From IMG/VR virus record IMGVR_UViG_3300035112_000003, positions 799-64,798 of that record: 64,000 nucleotides of DNA; one strand, written 5' to 3'. The notes under the pieces are model-generated. The model had not been told where the DNA came from, searched no databases, and was given only the letters and a program-made list of their open reading frames with translations. Each line of letters starts with the position of its first letter. The stretch's first letter is position 1. Positions 1 to 13,960 of this stretch are shown here, piece by piece. The stretch comes from a virus (Duplodnaviria > Caudoviricetes). A program made the translations under genes and the position numbers.

Positions 1-103
1 GCATAAACAGCGTATTGGATAGCGCTGAAAAGTATATGCTTGCCAATGTTGACTAACTCGTTTAACACAATTGATATTAACTAATCTATTAAACTTATAT
101 AAT

Positions 104-181
104 ATGACACCCCAAGTTATCGCTCTATCTCTTTCTATTATTGCTTTAGCGCTCATTGGCCTTAAATCAATTAAAAAGTAA
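104..181 (+). CDS. Small hydrophobic peptide (25 aa, MTPQVIALSLSIIALALIGLKSIKK), below ORF-track cutoff
   Basis: Manually translated; ATG follows an AT-rich leader; single TM segment and basic tail. Confidence 0.55.
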   Translation: MTPQVIALSLSIIALALIGLKSIKK

Positions 182-211
182 CCCATATTAATAACTAATT
201 AAACTAGTAGT

Positions 212-2277
212 ATGAATAACACATTTGGTGTCTTAAATGCAAATAATGAGCATACAGACGTATCGAAATCAGAAAAAGGCGCAAAGCAATATGCTACGCG
301 GCATGGCTATACCAAAGTATCAATCCGATATAATCATGGCTATGATGTAGATATTGTTGCCATCAAAAAAGGCCGTAAATGGGTTAAATATCCTAATTGA
401 TTAAATCAAACAATATTCAATTCATTAAATCGTTATATATGTTATTTAATCGTTTATTCATTGGCTGTCTTTTAGTTATGGCCATTGCGGCAATGTGGTT
501 GACCCTTCCTAACACACATAAAAAGGTGTATTATTACAATGCCTATGCGCCGGGATATGATGAATACTTTATCCTAAAATCATATCAGCTATTACCAATT
601 GACACTATTACGCATTTCGATGACCATGCTATCTCCACAAGTTCTCAAACAGGTTACACGGCTAAGATATTATCTTCTTATACTAAGTAATATATTCAAT
701 CACCCTTTAACCTTTCAAAATGAAGAATTTACGCATTAACCCCACATTAGCTGGTATTATTGTAATGCTGTTTATTTTTACTGTTGTAGCCTTTAAACAC
801 TGGGATTATCTTACATATAGGCGCTAATTAGCGTAACAGTTACGTAACAAGATTAATTAACTCTATTAATATACTTTTTATGAAAAAAGAAGATTTCTAT
901 GTTGGTCAACGCGTTAAGCAAAAAGACCCAGACGAGGGTTATATGATATATGGCATTGTAAAAGAGATAAAAGAAAAATCTATCCTTATAGACTGGGATG
1001 ACCCAGACTTTGGATTAATGGAAAACGTTGAACATTTCGAAGACGAATACCCTACAATTAAAAACGGGATACCCGGTTACTAATTACCATAACTATTAAT
1101 ACACTCTATTGTATGCCTTATTTTAAAGTTAAATATTATGCTGGCCCTTATTCAGGCACCCGTTCTGTCAACGCTGAGGATGAAGATCAAGCAATTGCAA
1201 TCGTAAAACATCAAATCCGGAAAGACATGTCCCTCCCAATGTATAGCGATGGGTACAGAATTATTGACAGTGACGAAACCAATGAAGACGAATAACTAAT
1301 TACTATAAACTACTTTAATACTTTATTTTATGGATATGATTACGTTATTCGATGGCACTAAAATACCAGCTACGATAAGCACAACTACACGCATATTCCA
1401 GATACAGACTTATGATGGTGAAACTATCCTTTGTAATCTCTTGACAGCGCAAAAACTGATCGCTGCGGATGCGTGCAAAGGAATAAAACACTATTGGAAT
1501 CATAAGTTTACTAGGCTCGGTAAATCGGAAGTAAAACATATGTCTTCATAAACAATAATGGCTGAAATCTATAGGCAACCATATAGGGAGCAGGCCATTA
1601 AATTAAATATAATTCTATGCTCATTAAAATAACTCAGCACACTAAAAAAGACCTACATAACACATCTAAACGGTCTTTTGTAAAAGGTAGCCATAACGAG
1701 GTACACGTAATTACAACCATATGGCTTTTATTTATTCCTATATGGACATTTAAAAAATTAAAAGCATCTCAATTATAAACTATGCAGACAGAATTTACAT
1801 GTGGGATATATACGGTTTCATATGTTGATGAATATGGGTGGCGGCTAACTGCTAATGGCCGAATTATTGGCGGTATTGATACGGACGGCGCACTCCTTTC
1901 CTTTAGTGCTGGAATGGCCATAGGAATAACCACAGACACATTGATTGAGATAGCTGTATTAATGAACAATATTAAACGACAATACAAGGCATTACAAACT
2001 AATAAAATATAACTCTATGCATCATACAACCGGTAATAAATACAAAACTCCTGACAATCTAATTAACTTACTTAGCACGTTTCGATTGGATGGCAAAGAC
2101 TATTGCGTGTTAATTTCAATAGGGGACGATACAGACAAACATTATCGTGGTTACAATGGGAATAGATACGCAGAGCCAATTGAAGTCAATAACCCCTACA
2201 ATTTAACTGAAGATGAAATGAAGACACTTACAAAAGGGATGGGGTACGAACCAAATTCGTTAATAGTCATGATTTAG
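212..2277 (+). other. Cluster of small early hypothetical genes (212-400, 397-690, 720-827, 880-1083, 1113-1295, 1330-1551, 1617-1778, 1782-2012, 2017-2277)
   Basis: Tandem co-oriented short ORFs with AT-rich spacers; 720-827 (35 aa, TM) and 1617-1778 (53 aa) translated by hand. Confidence 0.7.
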
Positions 2278-2362
2278 CTAACCTATCTAAAGACGGGAGC
2301 AAAACATAAAATAATTTCACAGGACGGTTTCAATTGGCAATGGTTGAGTTTTAGCCCTGAAT

Positions 2363-2392
2363 AAGCCCACAGGGATAGGTTGGGCTTCTTTT
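2363..2392 (+). terminator. Intrinsic terminator/attenuator upstream of the sigma factor
   Basis: AAGCCCA-11 nt-TGGGCTT stem followed by CTTTT. Confidence 0.65.
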
Positions 2393-2404
2393 AAACCTTA
2401 TTGT

Positions 2405-2896
2405 ATGATCCAAGTAGAATTTAAAACTATATTCCATGAGCTATTCCCACTTTTGTGGCGCTATAGTTGGAACATAACGAAAGATAAAGATGAAAGTGAG
2501 GATATTGCCCTATTGAGCATGGTAAAAGTATGGGATAACATACAAAACTTTAATACTGTTTTGGAGCTAAAGAAATATGCCTATGTTGCTACTAAAAATG
2601 ACAGCCTAAATTATGTCAGTAAGGTAAAGGTTAAAAGCAAATACATTTCGCAGTTAAATGAAGGGATTGAAGATAAAGACGAAATAGAAGTACTAACCTA
2701 TCGGGCCGCATTGATTGAGCGTATCTATGATAAAATAAACAGTCTGCCGCCTAAATGCAGACAAATATTAAACTTATGCTATTTACAAGGGATACCTAGG
2801 CATAAAGTGGCTGCTGACCTAAACATCAGTATTGATACAGTTAACACACAATGCCGGATTGCAATAAATAAACTAAAATCATTCATAACCCCCTAA
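2405..2896 (+). CDS. ECF-type RNA polymerase sigma-70 factor (Bacteroidetes expansion-family-like)
   Basis: Region 2 (SEDIAL..VKVW..YAYVATKNDSLN) and region 4 (INSLPPKCRQILNL...KVAADLNISIDTVNTQ) motifs. Confidence 0.88.
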   Translation: MIQVEFKTIFHELFPLLWRYSWNITKDKDESEDIALLSMVKVWDNIQNFNTVLELKKYAYVATKNDSLNYVSKVKVKSKYISQLNEGIEDKDEIEVLTYRAALIERIYDKINSLPPKCRQILNLCYLQGIPRHKVAADLNISIDTVNTQCRIAINKLKSFITP

Positions 2897-2905
2897 TGCT
2901 AAAAA

Positions 2906-3516
2906 ATGTCTAAATTCAATTATATACCCGGGACATGGGTTAAAATCGCCTACCATAAGATAGTTTACACTGGGTGTACTATTGGCTATGCTGCAACTAT
3001 AGATCGAAAGAGACTATACATTAATGATCCTAAATACACTCTTACCGTTATCCCTATTTCAGCAACATTCAAAATTAAATGGTTGTTTGCTGGCCATATG
3101 CTAGACCTTTGCCCATTACCTAATAAATATGAGCATTTAACCATTAATGACAATATTGACTACCAATCTTCTCACTCTTTAAATTAATTTCCATGAACAT
3201 ATATGATTTAAGAAAACACATTACTGTTTTGAATTTTGAAAAAACCTTACAAGGGGCGACTATCGTCTACAAAAATGGTGAATGGCCATCATCTATTAGT
3301 TTGACGCTAGACGAATTATTTAGGGAGCTTATATCTATTGGCACATATGAGGATAATTACCATGATCGAACTGAATTTGACGATTCAACCTGCATTAGCC
3401 AATGGGATGCTTTAAATATTGTAATACGTTGTGAGCTAGCTAAAGAACTTGAAAAAGAAATTGAAAACTCAGATTTAGGTAAATCAATTGAAAATCTATT
3501 AAACAAACAATTATGA
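2906..3516 (+). other. Two hypothetical genes (2906-3187, 3193-3516)
   Basis: ORF track; tight packing. Confidence 0.6.
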
Positions 3517-3812
3517 AAATTACGTTATTAGCATTTATTATTTTATTGTCTATTGGTTCAGTCTCGGTAAAAGCCCAAGATTCATCCTTGATAGCAGATG
3601 AAACTAATTTGACCTATACAAAGACGGGGGCGAAAATAGTTTCATATTCTGAATTGGCATTTCAGGCGATCTCTTTAAAATGGGGGGATCAATTTAAATC
3701 AATCAATATCAAATACAAGACAGATAGATACGGCAGATACAAGGAATACTCTATCTATTTGTCAACTGAACTAGCAAACAAAATTAAAGAATGGTCAAAA
3801 ACTAACTTATAA
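3513..3812 (+). CDS. Secreted protein (Sec signal, VKA|Q)
   Basis: Hydrophobic N-terminus with AxA-like site followed by Gln (Bacteroidota Q-rule). Confidence 0.65.
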   Translation: MKITLLAFIILLSIGSVSVKAQDSSLIADETNLTYTKTGAKIVSYSELAFQAISLKWGDQFKSINIKYKTDRYGRYKEYSIYLSTELANKIKEWSKTNL

Positions 3813-3946
3813 TGAATAAAACGAATTTGGTTATATTATGGATAATCTTACTTTGCGGCTGGTGGGCTTTATTCGCAGGAGAATATGAAATCTCAATCAA
3901 TTGCTTTTTGGCAGTTACGATAATATTTACATTTCACAATAAATAA
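3812..3946 (+). CDS. Small membrane protein (44 aa), not in ORF track
   Basis: Manual translation MNKTNLVILWIILLCGWWALFAGEYEISINCFLAVTIIFTFHNK; TAATG coupling with the upstream gene. Confidence 0.55.
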   Translation: MNKTNLVILWIILLCGWWALFAGEYEISINCFLAVTIIFTFHNK

Positions 3947-3953
3947 ATTTCAA

Positions 3954-4181
3954 ATGACACCCCACTATTACCGCAGATCAGCAATACACTCCGTACTATT
4001 ATTTCTTATTAGTATTATTATTGCTTCTTTTATTTTCAGTTGCTCTCCTAAAAATGGATGCCCGGCTGTATATAAAAACAGATTACAAGGCTACGGCTGG
4101 ATCAAATGCCGTGAAACAAAGAAGGTATTCGTATTAGATAAACAAGGTGCAGTAGCATGTACCTATATTGATAACAATTAA
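3954..4181 (+). CDS. Putative Cys-rich lipoprotein
   Basis: Hydrophobic stretch ending IFS-C, then CP and two further Cys. Confidence 0.55.
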   Translation: MTPHYYRRSAIHSVLLFLISIIIASFIFSCSPKNGCPAVYKNRLQGYGWIKCRETKKVFVLDKQGAVACTYIDNN

Positions 4182-4194
4182 ACAAAAGCAAACA

Positions 4195-4725
4195 ATGAAG
4201 TTTTTAATTCTCGCCCTATTAGGCTCTTTTTTTCTCAGTACAGGAATGGCTCAAAATGGGGGCCAATATCCCGAAAATGGCTCTGTTAAATTAGAATGGG
4301 TTGGCACAAGCGTAAAGATCACAAATAAACAACCCTGCGAAAGTGTTATTAAGGTTGCTTACGCTCAATCAACTGTCGATTTAACTATTGCAGGTAACTC
4401 AACTATTATATTTATGCCGCCTGCTGCTGTAGCTACTATTAAAGCCAAATCCACTACTAATTGCGGGGATACAGATTTTGGATGGGTTGAATTATCGCTG
4501 TCAGCAATGCCTGTCAAATTCATTTCTTATGACTTCCTAGCTATCGGCAATAAAGACGTAGTAGTAACTTTTGAGACGGCAGAAACAGCTAATGTAAAGC
4601 AGTACAACGTCCTTATCTCAACTGATGGTGTAAACTACCGGAAACTGGATTCGATCAAAGCTGATTTAATAACCCCTAACCGAACATATTCAATCAAAGT
4701 AAACACCTTAACCTTTAAAAAATAA
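4195..4725 (+). CDS. Secreted protein with a C-terminally truncated 'LPV' Ig/FN3-like domain
   Basis: Signal MKFLILALLGSFFLSTGMA|Q; C-terminal half MPVKFISYDF...FETAETANVKQYNVLISTDGVNY resembles the domain preceding T9SS CTDs; ATG at 4195 preferred over TTG at 4168. Confidence 0.7.
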   Translation: MKFLILALLGSFFLSTGMAQNGGQYPENGSVKLEWVGTSVKITNKQPCESVIKVAYAQSTVDLTIAGNSTIIFMPPAAVATIKAKSTTNCGDTDFGWVELSLSAMPVKFISYDFLAIGNKDVVVTFETAETANVKQYNVLISTDGVNYRKLDSIKADLITPNRTYSIKVNTLTFKK

Positions 4726-4729
4726 CAAC

Positions 4730-4891
4730 ATGAAGAAAATAATTATTGCGGCTATTTTAGCCACTACGATATTTGCCTGTAAGAGGGAAACAACATCAGC
4801 GCCACCAGTCAAATACTATTTCCGGATTGAAGCAGTAGACAATGATGGATCAAGTATAATCACTCCCTATAAAACAATTACCGTAAATTAG
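4730..4891 (+). CDS. Small lipoprotein (53 aa), not in ORF track
   Basis: MKKIIIAAILATTIFA-C-KRETTSAPPVKYYFRIEAVDNDGSSIITPYKTITVN; clear lipobox. Confidence 0.8.
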   Translation: MKKIIIAAILATTIFACKRETTSAPPVKYYFRIEAVDNDGSSIITPYKTITVN

Positions 4892-4936
4892 TATTCATTT
4901 TCTCCTCGTGCAATTAGCAATTAGACAGAACAACAA

Positions 4937-4969
4937 AAGCCCGGCTATTCCTAGTCGGGCTTACTTTTT
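4937..4969 (+). terminator. Intrinsic terminator of the + strand early block
   Basis: AAGCCCGGCTA-ttcc-TAGTCGGGCTT followed by ACTTTTT. Confidence 0.8.
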
Positions 4970-6909: not shown

Positions 6910-7668
6910 TTAAAATCTTAATGATAATGGGAAATTAATTGTCGTTTCTATAGTTGTTTTATTTCCATAATACCCCATTACTCCTATCAATAGGTTTCTT
7001 TTAGTTTGATATTTCATGCCAAATCCTGCTGCAACTGGCCAATACGACCAAAGTACACCCCAAGATAAATACAATCTACCATGAGGCTGCAATTTATCGT
7101 CATATTGCTTTTGTAATTTAGCCAGCGCTGTGAATTTATTATAGAAACTAAGGCTTTCGCCTTTCAGTTCTGCAATTCTATTTTGATATAGTCCTAGCTG
7201 CTTATCGGTATTAACTTGCAACGTGTGTACATCTGATCTGTATTTATTCACGAGGTTATTTTGATCTTCGAGTTTTACAAAACAATCATGGCAATTATCA
7301 ACGAATTCAGACGGCACAGTCACAGCGGTAGTATCCGTGTATTTCGCGTATTTGTATTTGTCAATAAGCTGTTTTACTTCTATGCTTGATTTATCTAGCT
7401 GTTCTTCTGTTCTTTCTTTCTGCGCTAACGCCAATTCTTTCTGGCCTCTTTCGAACTCCAATGAATCCTGAAAATCTTTAGCAGTACTATCCGATATTAC
7501 TTTGTATATCCTTAATACCGCCAGCGTACTATCGGCCAATTGTAGCGCCTTTTCTTTTGCAGATACTTCTAACTTCGATTGATGGCACCCTCTTATACAT
7601 AATGCAATCAAAATCAAAAAACCAATCAAGATAGTATATATGATATATGGCTTTATTTCTAATTTCAT
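6910..7668 (-). CDS. Spanin-like protein (N-terminal TM or lipobox, coiled coil, C-terminal beta strands ending in Phe)
   Basis: Hydrophobic N-terminus ...CIRGC, long heptad region, amphipathic C-terminus ...INFPLSLRF; located in the lysis region. Confidence 0.55.
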   Translation of the reverse strand: MKLEIKPYIIYTILIGFLILIALCIRGCHQSKLEVSAKEKALQLADSTLAVLRIYKVISDSTAKDFQDSLEFERGQKELALAQKERTEEQLDKSSIEVKQLIDKYKYAKYTDTTAVTVPSEFVDNCHDCFVKLEDQNNLVNKYRSDVHTLQVNTDKQLGLYQNRIAELKGESLSFYNKFTALAKLQKQYDDKLQPHGRLYLSWGVLWSYWPVAAGFGMKYQTKRNLLIGVMGYYGNKTTIETTINFPLSLRF

Positions 7669-9675: not shown

Positions 9676-12600
9676 TTATCGAACCCACCAATTAGTGGCA
9701 GACCCGCACTGGACTGCCTTCATAGTATATTGCCCTACTATTGTAAATGACGATGCCCCGTCTATAAGATCAGCAGTTGACCCATTTACTTGTACAGTGA
9801 CAGTGTTCCCACTATTATCTACCCTTTTGAACATGTACTCAACTCCCATCCCTGAGCCGAATACAGTACTGGCAGCCGGAAGGGTCATGGTGATATTTCC
9901 ACCAGCAGCATTTATTACAAAGAAATATTCTTGATTATTTACTGTGGTATTTGTAACTACACTGTCTACCCGTAAGAAATTAGCGCGGCCAGATTGGAAC
10001 CCATTAACAAATGTACTATTCCCTGCTGTGTATAATGGGGCTGTAGTAGGTACACTTGTTCCCAACCCTGCATTATTATTAGTATCAATAATTAATCCGG
10101 CTCCTTTATCATACACAGTTGCGGTTGGGGTAAATCCTATTTCTAGTGAATTGCCAGCACCAATTAATGCGAAAGTATATGGATGCCCCGTACTACTTCC
10201 ATCCAATATGAAAGCATTCCCATTAATACGGTAATTGAACATAGAATTAAATGTCAGGCTATTGCTGCTTCCTGTTACTGTTCTATTGCCAGCCAATGTG
10301 CCATCCCCTGAATATAACGTTGTCGCTGTGCTTGGAGTTTGCCATGTTACCGTCCCACTCCCGTTTGTTTGTAAAACTTGCCCCGATGAGCCATCTGAGG
10401 TTGGGAATGTAAATGCGTTATTGAATGTTACAGCCCCGTTACTCCCAGCTACTCGCAACCTAACCGGGGGTGGCCCCCCAGCACCTGCTGAAAGAGTTAT
10501 ATCTGCATTTGCATCCAGCATAATAGCCATACCGCCAGTAGCATTAGAATAATATGCAGTACTATTCGATACGTAAGCCCCGTATGTCCCACCCGAACTC
10601 CCTTTTACTCGAATACCACCCGTTAAGCTTCCATCATTAACTGCTTGAAAACCTACTTGTCCACTAGCGTTAGAGTTATTAACTCTCACTTCACCGAATC
10701 CGGTAGTACTCGTTGTAACATGTAATTTTGTAGATGGGGTTCCTCCTATCCCTACATTCCCCGTATTTCTGCTTTGCAAATCAGAAGAACTTACTTTAGC
10801 CCATGCGTTATCTTCGTACGCTCCTAATTGTTTGCAAATTATTTGAGTACCCCCATTTTTATTAAATAATGAATTATTAACACAACATCCAGCTTGGTCA
10901 ATTAAATAAGTGATATCCCCTATTCCTAAATTAGATACATCATCCAATACGTAGCTATAGTTATACCAGCCAGGAGCATCCCCATTCCAGACCTCTGACA
11001 TGAAATTATCAATTTTAAAATAAGCATTCCCAAATGAATTACTTAACCCCATGATATTTCCAGATGGTACATATATAGAACTTATATTCCATTGTGCTAA
11101 TACTCTATTAGCGTGAACCGTTTCGATATTATGTAGAAAAACAAATGCTTTATCGCAAAAATATACCTCACATTGATCTATATTAGCATGATCAGACACG
11201 GCAATCCCATATTTAAACCCTGCCACATGCACTCGTTCAAGCGTTGTCATTGTTTCACTAAAAATCTTATTTGTTATAATTCCCGCAACTTCATTTGTTG
11301 GTCGAACGCTGGCCGAAGCACTCCCATCAATCGCTACCATTACATTGTTATAATGCGATGTATTACACCAATAACAATTTATACCCCCCATAGACGGGCC
11401 GCCAACATGAATATTTTTTGAAACTAAAATAGATATATTTTTAAACGTATATGTGGTGTAGTTTAGGCTATCGCTTGCATTTGCTCTGCTTTTTGTTGAA
11501 AACAATGCAGGGTCATTACCTGTCCCGTTAATAAGTGAATATAATATAACACCCTTCCAGCTTACTATACTATCCATAGAAAGTAGATTAGGTGTCCATT
11601 CAGGCGGCGTTTCCCCTTCTATTATTATGTGGGTTCTGTTGTTGAATGAAGAATCAGATGCACCTGTAAAAAATGTATTTGGCAGGACGACTTGAGAATT
11701 CACATTCACTCCATTCACATTAGTACGTAGCGCTCCCGCAAACATATAAACTCCGTTAGGTACCCATACCTTACCACCACCATAATGATGGCAGCTATCT
11801 AATGCTTTTTGAAATGCAGATGTGTTATCTGTCCCCCACACAACAGTATCTGCACTTACTGTCGTGCTCGCAGCGTTCGTCAATGTAACAGTAGTTGAAT
11901 TCGTAAACCCAGAAATTGTTGTAATTAAATCAACACCTGCTGACCCTGCATATGGCACTCTAATGGCCTTGCCAACGTCCGCTGATGTGAAATTTGCAGA
12001 AGCGCTAGTTAATGTGCTGGAACTGGCCGAAATGGCTGCATCAAACACTTTTCGACCATCTCCCTTTGCTCCATATATCGGGTCTGTTACATTATAAACT
12101 TTGGGAGTTAGGCTTAAATCAAATAGAGTTGAAATACTTGCAGTATCCACTTTAAATGTTAATGCATTGGAATTACTAGAGCTATCCACAATAATAGTAT
12201 TGCTCCCAAATGCTGTCTTGAAATTGCCACTAGGAGTAGCAAGCCACCTAAATCCAGCCCCTATATTATTTATAGCTATAGACGGAATTTGGGTAAGATC
12301 ATATTGCGTTGCAATAACCGATGTATCTACTCTTTGAGTGATATTATTAGCGGTTACCGTATGTAGTATGCCAAACCCTGGATTTAGTCTTTTTAATGTA
12401 TCATTGATGGAAAGCGTATCCCCGGCCCCTGATGCATTTACAAATTGTGGTGGAGTTCCATTGGCGAATGAAGTCGCTTGCCCTTTTGCATTAAATGTTA
12501 TTTGACAATTCACACAAGTTCCTGCCAATACTTTATCTGCTAAAGAAATAGTACCTAATCCGTTATCGGAAAAATCACTTGAAGCAAATGTTGCCGCTCC

Positions 12601-13383
12601 TTTTGTTCCAGTTGTAGTTGCATTGTTTATCCCTATTTCACCAGTAGTTGAATTATATGTAATAGGGGATATATTAGAAATAAGACTTCTGACTTTCAAG
12701 TAAAAGTTAGGAATCATCCCGGTATCGGTAGTAGCTAATGTTCCATTCCCCCGTACGTACTGTGCGGTAGTTCCAGCGCCGGATACATTAAGCGTCCCAT
12801 TTACTGTTAGCGGGGAATTGGTTACCGTAAAAGCAGATGGCATAGATAACCCAACACTTGTTAACCCGGAGCCGCCACCACCTATTGCGGCCCTTATTGC
12901 TGCTGCCGTATCTTTTAATTGTGAAGTTGTAACAACATGATTTGATCCTAATGTATCAACGAACATCAATATTTTAGTCGCATTAGTAGAAAACGTCAAC
13001 CCATAATCATTTTGTATTCTCTTAATTGCATTATTAATATATAAAGAATCTCCGCTTACGCCTGCATTCGATAGTTGATTTTGCTTTAGGTTTATTCTAT
13101 TGCTTAATGATATTGTATCTCTATCCAATAAACCACGAAACCAGCGCCTGTTACCTCCATAAAACCATAATGCCGTATCGCCCCCCTGAATACGTACAAT
13201 TTGCGTTCCTGCGTAACGAGCATAAAATGTATCAAGCACAGGATTTACTAGGGGACTATCTAATATTATCCATGATGCTTCAGTATTACCTGTAAATATT
13301 CGTGACTTAAAAGTACTAGCCGGTAATTGCGCCTGTACAGTAAGCCCGATAAAAACTAATAAAACTATAAATATATTTCTCAT
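9676..13383 (-). CDS. Tailspike/tail fibre with a pectate-lyase-like beta-helix and an N-terminal signal peptide
   Basis: VYNVTD..YGAKGDG...DNTSAFQKALD..GGGKVWVPNGVY; fibre motifs (GNVGIG, FPTSDGSSGQVLQTNGSG, TLPAA); start MRNIFIVLLVFIGLTVQA|Q. Confidence 0.85.
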   Translation of the reverse strand: MRNIFIVLLVFIGLTVQAQLPASTFKSRIFTGNTEASWIILDSPLVNPVLDTFYARYAGTQIVRIQGGDTALWFYGGNRRWFRGLLDRDTISLSNRINLKQNQLSNAGVSGDSLYINNAIKRIQNDYGLTFSTNATKILMFVDTLGSNHVVTTSQLKDTAAAIRAAIGGGGSGLTSVGLSMPSAFTVTNSPLTVNGTLNVSGAGTTAQYVRGNGTLATTDTGMIPNFYLKVRSLISNISPITYNSTTGEIGINNATTTGTKGAATFASSDFSDNGLGTISLADKVLAGTCVNCQITFNAKGQATSFANGTPPQFVNASGAGDTLSINDTLKRLNPGFGILHTVTANNITQRVDTSVIATQYDLTQIPSIAINNIGAGFRWLATPSGNFKTAFGSNTIIVDSSSNSNALTFKVDTASISTLFDLSLTPKVYNVTDPIYGAKGDGRKVFDAAISASSSTLTSASANFTSADVGKAIRVPYAGSAGVDLITTISGFTNSTTVTLTNAASTTVSADTVVWGTDNTSAFQKALDSCHHYGGGKVWVPNGVYMFAGALRTNVNGVNVNSQVVLPNTFFTGASDSSFNNRTHIIIEGETPPEWTPNLLSMDSIVSWKGVILYSLINGTGNDPALFSTKSRANASDSLNYTTYTFKNISILVSKNIHVGGPSMGGINCYWCNTSHYNNVMVAIDGSASASVRPTNEVAGIITNKIFSETMTTLERVHVAGFKYGIAVSDHANIDQCEVYFCDKAFVFLHNIETVHANRVLAQWNISSIYVPSGNIMGLSNSFGNAYFKIDNFMSEVWNGDAPGWYNYSYVLDDVSNLGIGDITYLIDQAGCCVNNSLFNKNGGTQIICKQLGAYEDNAWAKVSSSDLQSRNTGNVGIGGTPSTKLHVTTSTTGFGEVRVNNSNASGQVGFQAVNDGSLTGGIRVKGSSGGTYGAYVSNSTAYYSNATGGMAIMLDANADITLSAGAGGPPPVRLRVAGSNGAVTFNNAFTFPTSDGSSGQVLQTNGSGTVTWQTPSTATTLYSGDGTLAGNRTVTGSSNSLTFNSMFNYRINGNAFILDGSSTGHPYTFALIGAGNSLEIGFTPTATVYDKGAGLIIDTNNNAGLGTSVPTTAPLYTAGNSTFVNGFQSGRANFLRVDSVVTNTTVNNQEYFFVINAAGGNITMTLPAASTVFGSGMGVEYMFKRVDNSGNTVTVQVNGSTADLIDGASSFTIVGQYTMKAVQCGSATNWWVR

Positions 13384-13384
13384 A

Positions 13385-13960
13385 CTATACATTTATAAGT
13401 TGAACCATATGTATCATATACAATTGACTTGTCCCAACTCCATTGCTAAATACGATTACTATATTATTTGCATTATATGTAACAGTATATTCTTGTTGCG
13501 AAACATCACTACCATAGGGCAATTCTGTTCCATCTAAAGTAATTTCAACGCTAGGATTTACCACGCCTGCATAATTCAGCGTCAAGCTAGTTTGTCCGGC
13601 TATCATTGGAGCCCCTACATCTCCTACCCGGAATTGCACAAAAGGAGTTGCGATTGTCACGTTATTTCCAGTTGAAGGATTAACAATATTGCCTGTACTT
13701 CCAGAATCTATTACATTTTGCGCAGCATGAATATATGGATTGCATAGTGAATACATATAATTTGCCATCTTAGGTAAGATGCTGGCACCAGAATCAATAT
13801 CATATTGCCACTGTACAGATTCTTTTACTATAAACAAAAGAGATGATTGATTAGGCCGATTGCCACCGCCTTGTAATAATAATTTTTTAGAATTACCATC
13901 AGCAGCAAGATATTGGCATATTTTAGCTATAGTCAAATATGTAGTTACTGGTACTGCCAT
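13385..13960 (-). CDS. Virion structural protein (tail hub/fibre adaptor candidate)
   Basis: Position between ejection proteins and the tailspike; helical N-terminus and beta-rich C-terminus. Confidence 0.5.
   Translation of the reverse strand: MAVPVTTYLTIAKICQYLAADGNSKKLLLQGGGNRPNQSSLLFIVKESVQWQYDIDSGASILPKMANYMYSLCNPYIHAAQNVIDSGSTGNIVNPSTGNNVTIATPFVQFRVGDVGAPMIAGQTSLTLNYAGVVNPSVEITLDGTELPYGSDVSQQEYTVTYNANNIVIVFSNGVGTSQLYMIHMVQLINV

Follow-up and report, generated by a model that had tools for sequence, protein, structure and literature searches.

In a 64,000-nucleotide stretch of viral DNA (Duplodnaviria; Caudoviricetes; IMG/VR record IMGVR_UViG_3300035112_000003, positions 799 to 64,798), which we call the window and which represents nearly the whole of the 64.8-kb record (estimated completeness, 93%), we analyzed two neighboring open reading frames (ORFs) that appear to encode one protein domain in two pieces. 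ORF1 (4195-4725, plus strand, ATG to TAA) encodes a protein of 176 amino acids (aa) with a Sec signal, and ORF2 (4730-4891, plus strand), which begins MKKIIIAAILATTIFAC, encodes a putative lipoprotein of 53 aa. Judged by sequence comparison, the two products are complementary, non-overlapping parts of a single fibronectin type III (FN3)/immunoglobulin (Ig)-like domain, with strands A to E encoded by ORF1 and strands F and G by ORF2. The best overall explanation, which we regard as probable, is that ORF2 gives rise to a lipopeptide that donates its F-G hairpin to ORF1 and thereby tethers the ORF1 protein to a membrane. An earlier note on this DNA had drawn attention to the pair, and the ORF coordinates, the 4-nucleotide (nt) spacing, the Sec signal, the lipobox and the peptide strings quoted there were all confirmed.

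The domain is not represented in Pfam or NCBIfam; the name "LPV domain" used here is the label of that note and not that of a curated family. Our profile hidden Markov model (HMM) of the LPV domain was derived from 16 complete domains (seven proteins and nine repeats of the protein P0150) and has 99 positions. Residues 104-167 of ORF1 matched HMM positions 2-63 (independent E-value, 2.6e-13), and residues 27-51 of ORF2 matched positions 73-97 (E = 4.9e-6 at Z=1), without any overlap between the two matches. The signature of strands A-E, LP[VI]K[FL]..F ... W.T..E ... [YF].[IV].[RKE]S.DG ... Y.F, is present in ORF1; the signature of strands F-G, YYR[IL]...D.DG...YS..[IV], is absent from the ORF1 chain and is found in ORF2. 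Two controls were used. The mature part of ORF2 scored 13.8 bits, compared to 6.4 bits for the best of 2000 shuffled sequences, and when all 967 stop-to-stop frames of 30 aa or more were scanned across the window, only ORF1 (E = 1.5e-10) and ORF2 (E = 0.0049) matched, the next frame having an E-value of 0.57. Among the 14 sequences of the ORF2 family, the hairpin matched the same region of the profile at E <1e-3 in 12. The proposal that the front of the domain lies in the first gene and the missing hairpin in the lipoprotein was thus upheld by shuffle-controlled profile matches to positions 2-63 and 73-97.

The ORF1 precursor can be divided into four parts. A signal peptide (residues 1-19, MKFLILALLGSFFLSTGMA; 4195-4251, plus strand) is modeled by AF2 as a helix at residues 2-18, with predicted cleavage before Q20; this residue, together with N21, G23 and Q24, is invariant in an alignment of 24 ORF1-type sequences (alignment A1). 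The glutamine at +1 agrees with the Q-rule of Bacteroidetes, according to which signal-peptide cleavage exposes Gln at +1 (PMC5837995 and PMC10653852). The signal peptide is followed by an Ig-like beta-sandwich of no named family (residues 20-103; 4252-4503, plus strand), for which no match was detected in Pfam, NCBIfam or PHROGs, and which has the motifs QNGGQ..EN, NKQ.C, KAK..T.CG and D.GWVEL conserved in alignments A1 and A3; this N-domain, with its invariant mature N-terminus QNGGQ..EN, probably binds a component of the host envelope. Next comes the truncated FN3-like LPV domain (residues 104-167; 4504-4695, plus strand), consisting of strands A, B, C, C' and E only, and then a short basic tail, ..VNTLTFKK and the TAA stop (4696-4725, plus strand), which reads NTSTFKK in close relatives, so that ORF1 ends 9 residues beyond strand E. 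The stop codon is separated from the ORF2 start by the spacer CAAC (4726-4729, plus strand); the same junction is found in two related loci (L006 and L007), and one base differs in a third (L004).

ORF2 starts with a lipoprotein signal peptide and lipobox, MKKIIIAAILATTIFA before C17 (4730-4780, plus strand), in which a basic n-region, a hydrophobic h-region and a Cys-ending lipobox are all recognizable (MKK-IIIAAILATT-IFA-C). The Cys is invariant, and all 14 family sequences fit the lipobox pattern, a PROSITE-style pattern that was applied both to the ORF2 family and to the one-chain relatives described below. The alignment of the ORF2 family delimits a linker, KRETTSAPP, between the putatively lipidated Cys and the hairpin (4781-4807, plus strand); the remainder, VKYYFRIEAVDNDGSSIITPYKTITVN and the stop codon (4808-4891, plus strand), corresponds to the F and G strands of the LPV domain. 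The mature ORF2-type peptide is 34-42 aa long in 23 of the 23 sequences examined. The ORF1 stop lies in TTTAAAAAATAA, and the frame of ORF2 (+1) is open from position 4712 onward. A fusion of ORF1 and ORF2 by frameshift or read-through was considered and rejected: such a product would have no first membrane helix, its hairpin would stay in the cytoplasm, and the route is probably unused. Searches of Pfam, NCBIfam and PHROGs with ORF1 and ORF2 gave sub-threshold matches only. The F5/8 type C identity was rejected (17.6 bits, against a cut-off of 28.2), as were the Ag473 and EexN identities for ORF2, which are sub-threshold matches to lipoprotein signal peptides (the NCBIfam EexN match covers the signal peptide only).

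We compared the window to related loci in order to establish whether the two genes are kept together. A search of viral contigs with ORF1 or alignment A1 found one related virus only, and a scan of metagenomes yielded 12 loci, of which eight (L004-L011) contain a complete ORF1-type gene with downstream DNA and are usable; the other four were set aside, either cut by contig ends (L012 and L015) or encoding the N-domain followed by a sorting-domain-like tail (L013 and L014). In all eight usable loci, a small hairpin-type lipoprotein gene is present downstream of the ORF1 homolog, on the same strand and within 0.5 kb; this was the search of related phages that the earlier note had called for. The distance from the ORF1 stop to the lipoprotein gene is 4 nt in L004-L007 and approximately 30-45 nt in L009 and L011, and in two loci an unrelated ORF is inserted between the genes: one of 81 aa in L008 (1198-1443), where starts and stops overlap, and one of 132 aa in L010 (3019-3417). 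The pair survives separation by inserted ORFs. It should be noted that L004 and L005 encode identical proteins and that L010 is the same virus as L002/L003; the pair is carried by about six independent lineages besides the window, down to 34% identity in ORF1.

A comparison of ORF2 in the window and in L004 showed 13 synonymous and 4 non-synonymous changes (dN/dS 0.07), with 10 synonymous versus 1 non-synonymous change in the mature part; in more distant ORF2 pairs, synonymous sites are saturated. Judged by these substitutions, ORF2 is under purifying selection. Together with the pairing in all usable loci, this agrees with the view, expressed in the earlier note, that the split is no simple frameshift. 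The same data bear on the notion that ORF2 is not a real gene, its hairpin being a chance match or a decaying remnant. It is true that ORF2 has just 53 codons' worth of protein and matches no curated family, and that a look-up of sequencing runs listed 12 DNA runs with small shares and no RNA data set; however, the shuffle and whole-window controls, the 14 conserved sequences with an invariant lipobox Cys and the low dN/dS make this notion hardly credible.

The ORF1 family was then characterized. There are 77 relatives of a length similar to ORF1, and every member of alignment A1 stops soon after the Y-S-I-K-V strand. An exhaustive phmmer search expanded the family to 138 representative clusters, for which we define the following classes by means of the HMM: (i) truncated forms like ORF1 (86 of 138, with two more that have longer tails); (ii) one-chain forms (9 of 138), which are single ORFs of 220-284 aa with two hydrophobic helices after strand E; (iii) uninterrupted forms (10 of 138), in which the LPV domain is continuous. 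The remaining 31 clusters have no significant LPV front and are N-domain-only, N-domain plus sorting domain, or divergent. Several side observations concern these last forms and other unusual members. The N-domain stands directly before a sorting-domain-like tail, without an LPV domain, in L012-L014, P0153, P0166, P0187, P0196 and P0202; the tail of P0153 scored 33.5 bits with Por_Secre_tail, and in the other members of this group it was recognized by eye only. Some family members (~120-140 aa) end right after the first LPV strand. A search for longer proteins with ORF2 as query yielded P0226 only (458 aa, on a 2.8-kb contig), in which a structural-protein-like sequence is joined in frame to ORF2 in the middle of the signal peptide (..AILAITVFACKRE..), which is probably an assembly chimera or a rearrangement.

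In the one-chain forms, the insert lies exactly between strand E and the hairpin and consists of a helix, a basic loop, and a second helix that ends in a lipobox; the first helix and the loop occupy the position of the basic tail of ORF1. The lipobox pattern was found internally in all nine, with the Cys and the Lys two residues later invariant, and the hairpin gave a significant second HMM match in five, being recognized by eye only in the remaining four. With a cleaved N-terminal signal and two membrane passes, both domain halves of these proteins would be placed in the same compartment, and the retention of the internal lipobox suggests that the one-chain precursors are cut in two pieces as well. 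For example, P0117 reads ..YSINLSS-helix-KRKS-helix-FAC-TKS.., compared to ..YSIKVNTLTFKK stop / MKK-helix-FAC-KRE.. in the window; by this comparison, the gene split would lie within the cytoplasmic loop of the one-chain form. One of the one-chain forms, P0125, is located on a 367-kb contig.

Among the ten uninterrupted proteins, six (P0131, P0143, P0151, P0171, P0177 and P0194) combine an ORF1-type N-domain with an uninterrupted LPV domain and end in a tail similar to the sorting domain of the type IX secretion system (T9SS), and three others have the LPV domain behind different N-terminal parts. Four of the six were scanned with Por_Secre_tail and matched it: P0131 (39.3 bits) and P0143 (35.0 bits) exceeded the Pfam cut-off of 27, and P0151 and P0177 were borderline; the TIGR04183 cut-off of 23 was exceeded by P0131 and P0210. 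P0131 is located on a 106-kb contig. The existence of such relatives bears out the statement in the earlier note that the LPV domain precedes the T9SS C-terminal domain in cargo proteins. The tenth protein, P0080, is a close relative and a natural in-frame fusion of both pieces, without a signal peptide: its residues 1-93 correspond to ORF1 residues 74-166 at 69% identity, its residues 93-134 correspond to ORF2 residues 12-53 at 62% identity, and it matches HMM positions 2-97 as one stretch. The truncated A-E module also forms the end of two proteins with N-terminal parts unrelated to ORF1, P0172 (361 aa) and P0170 (193 aa), whose C-termini read ..YSIKVTSK or ..YTTYITIK; by sequence, the module may be a portable docking tag. 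A search of genome contigs found no relative from the N-domain family with the one pattern used, and the genome-contig matches of P0131 had the LPV and sorting domains only, in an Ignavibacterium metagenome-assembled genome (MAG) and a Bacteroidetes MAG.

Structure predictions are consistent with an incomplete last domain in ORF1. The AF2 model (90-row alignment; mean predicted local distance difference test score, pLDDT, 88.2) has a signal helix, a seven-strand N-domain (means of pLDDT over 10-residue blocks from 79 to 97) and a last domain of five strands (107-118, 121-131, 136-141, 149-155 and 164-170). The best Foldseek matches of this model were tandem FN3 pairs (5mya_B, E = 7.5e-4). Upon re-alignment with VIA, residues 28-103 superposed on Ig-like sandwiches with Z of 7-9.3 over 64-76 residues and a root-mean-square deviation (rmsd) of 1.7-2.9; among the best 50 rows, every single-domain row lay on the N-domain (residues 21-104), and there was no single-domain row for the last domain alone. 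The YY.[RK]I strand belongs to the core of FN3 folds, and this strand is missing from the last domain of ORF1. A complete sandwich formed by ORF1 alone, the outcome that the earlier note had named as fatal to its proposal, was not seen in the model; both the incomplete ORF1 fold and the docking of the hairpin are predictions.

The AF2 model of the one-chain relative P0140 (58 rows; pLDDT 80.5) has the two helices at 198-215 and 226-244 and hairpin strands at 260-269, 274-276 and 280-283 (pLDDT ~85-90). Single FN3 domains superposed on P0140 residues 118-284 over 85-94 residues with rmsd 2.3-2.8 and Z 9.0-9.5; for 4bqb_C and 3di3_B, for example, the Z of 9.2-9.5 (rmsd 2.3-2.5, 88-90 residues) is common among sandwiches and is indicative of the fold only. 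Strands A-E offer only ~73 residues, and the aligned lengths therefore suggest that the hairpin of P0140 belongs to the superposed sandwich. The prediction for the two-chain complex of ORF1 and ORF2, based on our own alignments, gave a median score of 0.54 (0.54, 0.54 and 0.60), compared to 0.01 for the best control, with a partner pLDDT of at least 66 and runs that agreed in at least 85% of contacts; in the calibration, 58 of 80 solved complexes and 2 of 110 mismatched pairs attained the mark, and scores up to 0.60 accounted for only 7 of the 80 solved complexes and for both mismatches. Of the proposal that the fold is completed in trans, the part that stands is that the hairpin completes the sandwich in the one-chain model; the docking of the separate ORF2 onto ORF1 came out weak.

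Lipidation, cleavage, location and purpose are what we infer for this pair, and the following sequence of events is proposed. ORF1 would be exported by Sec and cleaved before Q20, leaving the Ig-like N-domain and an LPV domain that ends after strand E and thus would have neither strand F nor strand G, including the core strand with the conserved YY.[RK]I. ORF2 would be translated from its start 4 nt past the ORF1 stop. Its product would be exported in the form of a lipoprotein precursor and, after lipidation at Cys17 and cleavage, would yield a lipopeptide of ~37 residues, in which the acylated Cys is connected to the F-G hairpin by a linker of ~9 residues. This hairpin would insert into the open sandwich of ORF1 outside the cytoplasm, two strands being donated in trans, and the insertion would complete the ORF1 fold and tether the two-domain protein to a membrane. 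A more general version is plausible, if short of likely: the split domain may be a portable anchor, by which exported cargo ending in an LPV domain without F-G is captured by a lipopeptide of ~37 residues, and the one-chain forms may be cut at the internal lipobox by signal peptidase II into a membrane protein and its own lipidated strand donor.

The membrane leaflet was addressed using the signal for surface export of Bacteroidota lipoproteins, which is C-X-K-(D/E)2-X or S-D-D-like (PMC5080379). As coded, the motif requires a polar or basic residue at +2/+3 to be followed directly by at least two acidic ones. The ORF2 sequence, C-K-R-E-T-T, contains a single acidic residue and does not have this motif, which was found in 0 of 23 sequences, the nearest being L011 (CEEEQ) and P0191 (CSKKDE), a result that is indicative only, given that the rule was derived in a few species. 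The absence of the surface-export signal from ORF2 suggests that the complex is probably located at the periplasm-facing leaflet.

Several observations weigh against the proposed lipid tethering by hairpin donation or limit its basis. The hairpin match was not significant in 2 of the 14 ORF2-family members (L007, E = 0.022; L011, E = 0.28), and the hairpins of four of the nine one-chain forms were sub-threshold (P0190 and P0213, ~0.005; P0105, 0.56; P0125, none). Nine of the ten uninterrupted proteins fed the HMM, which makes the full-length match circular in their case; the HMM was built without P0080 and P0171, and P0171 is not counted among the nine contributors. P0080 is represented by one sequence from one 3.9-kb contig. 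Searches of viral contigs with the one-chain P0117 or the uninterrupted P0131 gave no related locus. The uninterrupted relatives would go to the cell surface via the T9SS, whereas the pair looks periplasmic, and the sites of action may differ. The placement of the P0140 hairpin in the sandwich was deduced from aligned lengths and ranges, not from coordinates; furthermore, the alignment for P0140 included the fused P0080, and AF2 is well acquainted with FN3 domains, so docking in cis is not independent proof. Finally, the prediction of the complex in trans is graded as "weak support" and comes without a contact list.

The weak docking prediction also speaks for a rival scenario, in which the two genes descend from a split domain and no longer cooperate; ORF2 would have become a small lipoprotein acting independently, perhaps in exclusion or as an accessory to lysis, and ORF1 a soluble periplasmic protein whose truncated domain is stabilized in some other way. 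The tolerance of insertions between the two genes (81 aa in L008, 132 aa in L010) fits this scenario, as does the existence of small phage lipoproteins that function independently, an example being Llp of phage T5. However, the hairpin itself is under strong purifying selection (the 10 to 1 ratio in the mature part), the two genes occur together in 8 of 8 usable loci, and the core F strand is missing from the last domain of ORF1. In addition, the one-chain relatives hold both halves on one side of the membrane, and the P0080 fusion unites them in one uninterrupted domain. We thus consider the loss of cooperation unlikely and retain hairpin donation to ORF1 as the preferred explanation.

The earlier note had also raised the possibility of a poison for the folding of host LPV-domain cargo. 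In this reading, either the hairpin in its lipidated form or the truncated domain would intrude into the LPV domains of host T9SS cargo, or compete with them, and upset their folding or secretion. Potential targets exist, because the LPV domain is found directly before T9SS sorting domains in the Ignavibacterium MAG, the Bacteroidetes MAG and many metagenomic proteins. Conversely, host domains own their F-G strands in cis, and a free hairpin would be a poor competitor; a complementary partner is encoded next door, in genes arranged for coupled translation; and the natural fused forms and the strict pairing indicate that both phage pieces belong together, with ORF1 as the partner of the hairpin. 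Poisoning is therefore improbable.

The genomic setting of the pair is as follows. Proteins encoded in the window include a large terminase, virion proteins, a UvsX-like recombinase, an HNH endonuclease and a tail protein with a pectin-lyase-like part. Small ORFs make up a rightward block at bases 1-4900, which ends with the ORF1/ORF2 pair. A terminator-like hairpin (4937-4962, plus strand; an 11-pair stem followed by a T-run, detected in a consensus scan) is located just after ORF2 and would close the rightward transcription unit; a second terminator-like site from the same type of scan (5004-4983, minus strand) is convergent and faces it. The block contains an ORF for an extracytoplasmic function (ECF)-like sigma factor (2405-2896, plus strand), with Sigma70 regions 2 and 4 passing the Pfam cut-offs; in L002 (ORF1 identity, 43%), an ORF at 4232-4714, directly downstream of the pair, has a length close to that of the sigma factor and resembles it by eye. 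Within this sigma-factor block, positions 3513-4891 are a cluster of five small envelope-targeted ORFs. Besides the pair, these are a 99-aa ORF (3513-3812) with a Sec signal ending in VKA before QDSS, a 44-aa ORF (3812-3946) that amounts to one hydrophobic helix, and a 75-aa putative lipoprotein (3954-4181, plus strand) whose lipobox is IFSC and whose mature part has four Cys. This putative lipoprotein lies outside the split domain; its homologs adjoin the pair in L002, L004-L006 and L015 and come after ORF2 in L007. The location of the pair in this cluster is the ground for a guess at its purpose, namely that the phage alters the host envelope early, through receptor masking or superinfection exclusion, for example; this purpose is tentative and rather doubtful.

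The neighborhood also has to be considered with regard to lysis. A two-component spanin consists of an i-spanin, with an N-terminal anchor and a periplasmic coiled coil, and a small o-spanin lipoprotein, encoded in a lysis cassette. ORF2 resembles an o-spanin in size and lipobox only, with a Pro-containing linker as a further o-spanin-like trait, and the adjoining leftward block may include lysis genes, although it is unannotated and has one sub-threshold holin match. That match (Pfam holin, E = 0.0076) is the sole match of a 252-aa protein encoded at 6910-7668 on the minus strand, in which a membrane helix at the N-terminus precedes a long middle part of helical or coiled-coil-like character and a C-terminal end rich in beta structure, and which could be a spanin-like or lysis protein. 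If the pair itself were such a lysis device, made of a small outer-membrane lipoprotein and a periplasm-spanning partner, ORF1 would be expected to be that partner; it has instead a cleavable signal and two all-beta domains, with no membrane anchor or coiled coil. Moreover, the pair is not encoded on the strand of the leftward genes, closes a small-gene block that contains a sigma factor and has its own terminator-like site, and neither the T9SS-sorted relatives nor the portable use of the module fits a spanin. This makes a spanin function of the pair very improbable.

We infer a Bacteroidota host for the phage, on account of the Gln-exposing signal cleavage sites, the T9SS sorting domains in relatives and the Bacteroidota-labeled ESM Atlas clusters; the ESM Atlas matches were to unnamed Bacteroidota clusters only and represent a lead only. 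At 9676-13392 (minus strand), a 1238-aa tail-fiber-like protein has a pectin-lyase-like segment that matches phrog_32881 (E = 2.6e-22); it is probably a depolymerase, which would be a hint of a polysaccharide receptor.

The pair can be compared to several known systems. Chaperone-usher pili are assembled by donor-strand complementation, and the type V pili of Bacteroidia by strand exchange, with pilins made as lipoprotein precursors. The likeness is in an Ig-like subunit with an incomplete sandwich, the missing strand being supplied by another polypeptide outside the cytoplasm. In contrast to pilus subunits, ORF1 would be short of a whole F-G hairpin, two strands and not one, its donor would be a dedicated lipopeptide of ~37 residues in place of a chaperone or the next subunit, and the outcome would likely be membrane tethering, not fiber assembly; there was no sign of polymerization in the pair, and the window was not searched for chaperone, usher or pilin genes. 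SpyTag/SpyCatcher are engineered split Ig-like tags derived from the CnaB2 domain. As in these tags, a separated terminal beta-strand segment of an Ig-like domain would re-associate and restore the fold; unlike them, the phage pair is natural and apparently non-covalent, involves two strands, and has a lipidated small piece. Two donated strands, a lipopeptide as donor and anchoring as the outcome would thus set the pair apart from pili and split tags.

With T9SS type A cargo (PF18962 / TIGR04183), the pair has in common the N-domain and LPV domain of its relatives, and membrane attachment would result either way. The difference is in the attachment, for which the pair would use the lipid of a donated hairpin and cargo uses T9SS export and surface linkage, and in the site, which is probably periplasmic for the pair and is the surface for cargo; no Por_Secre_tail match (PF18962 / TIGR04183) was detected in ORF1 or ORF2 at E up to 10. 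Lacking a sorting domain, the two proteins do not qualify as T9SS cargo, nor are they a spanin pair. The phage envelope lipoproteins T5 Llp, Cor and TP-J34 Ltp block receptors or entry. Like them, ORF2 is a small phage lipoprotein encoded outside the structural genes, for which a role in the host envelope is plausible; the difference is that they have no sequence similarity to ORF2 and act as whole folded domains, not as strand donors. Our literature searches (phage lipoprotein exclusion in Bacteroidetes; strand complementation, lipoprotein, Ig-like) returned no description of such a pair, and the term "internal lipobox" was not found.

The interest of the pair rests mainly on binding being confirmed. 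If the proposed assembly is true, lipid anchoring by two-strand donor complementation would have its first natural example, and donor-strand complementation would be extended beyond pili. The one-chain relatives would be the first Ig-like domain interrupted by a transmembrane hairpin, and would show that a lipobox can occur naturally inside a polypeptide. The two pieces would also be a small natural docking pair, with possible use as a protein-tethering tag. The ORF1 family, with its 138 representative clusters, is widespread and unannotated, and its members apparently belong to Bacteroidota phages of soil and rhizosphere; if the pieces assemble, these phages would have a new viral route for fixing a secreted protein to the host membrane, in which the terminal hairpin of a domain doubles as its lipid anchor.

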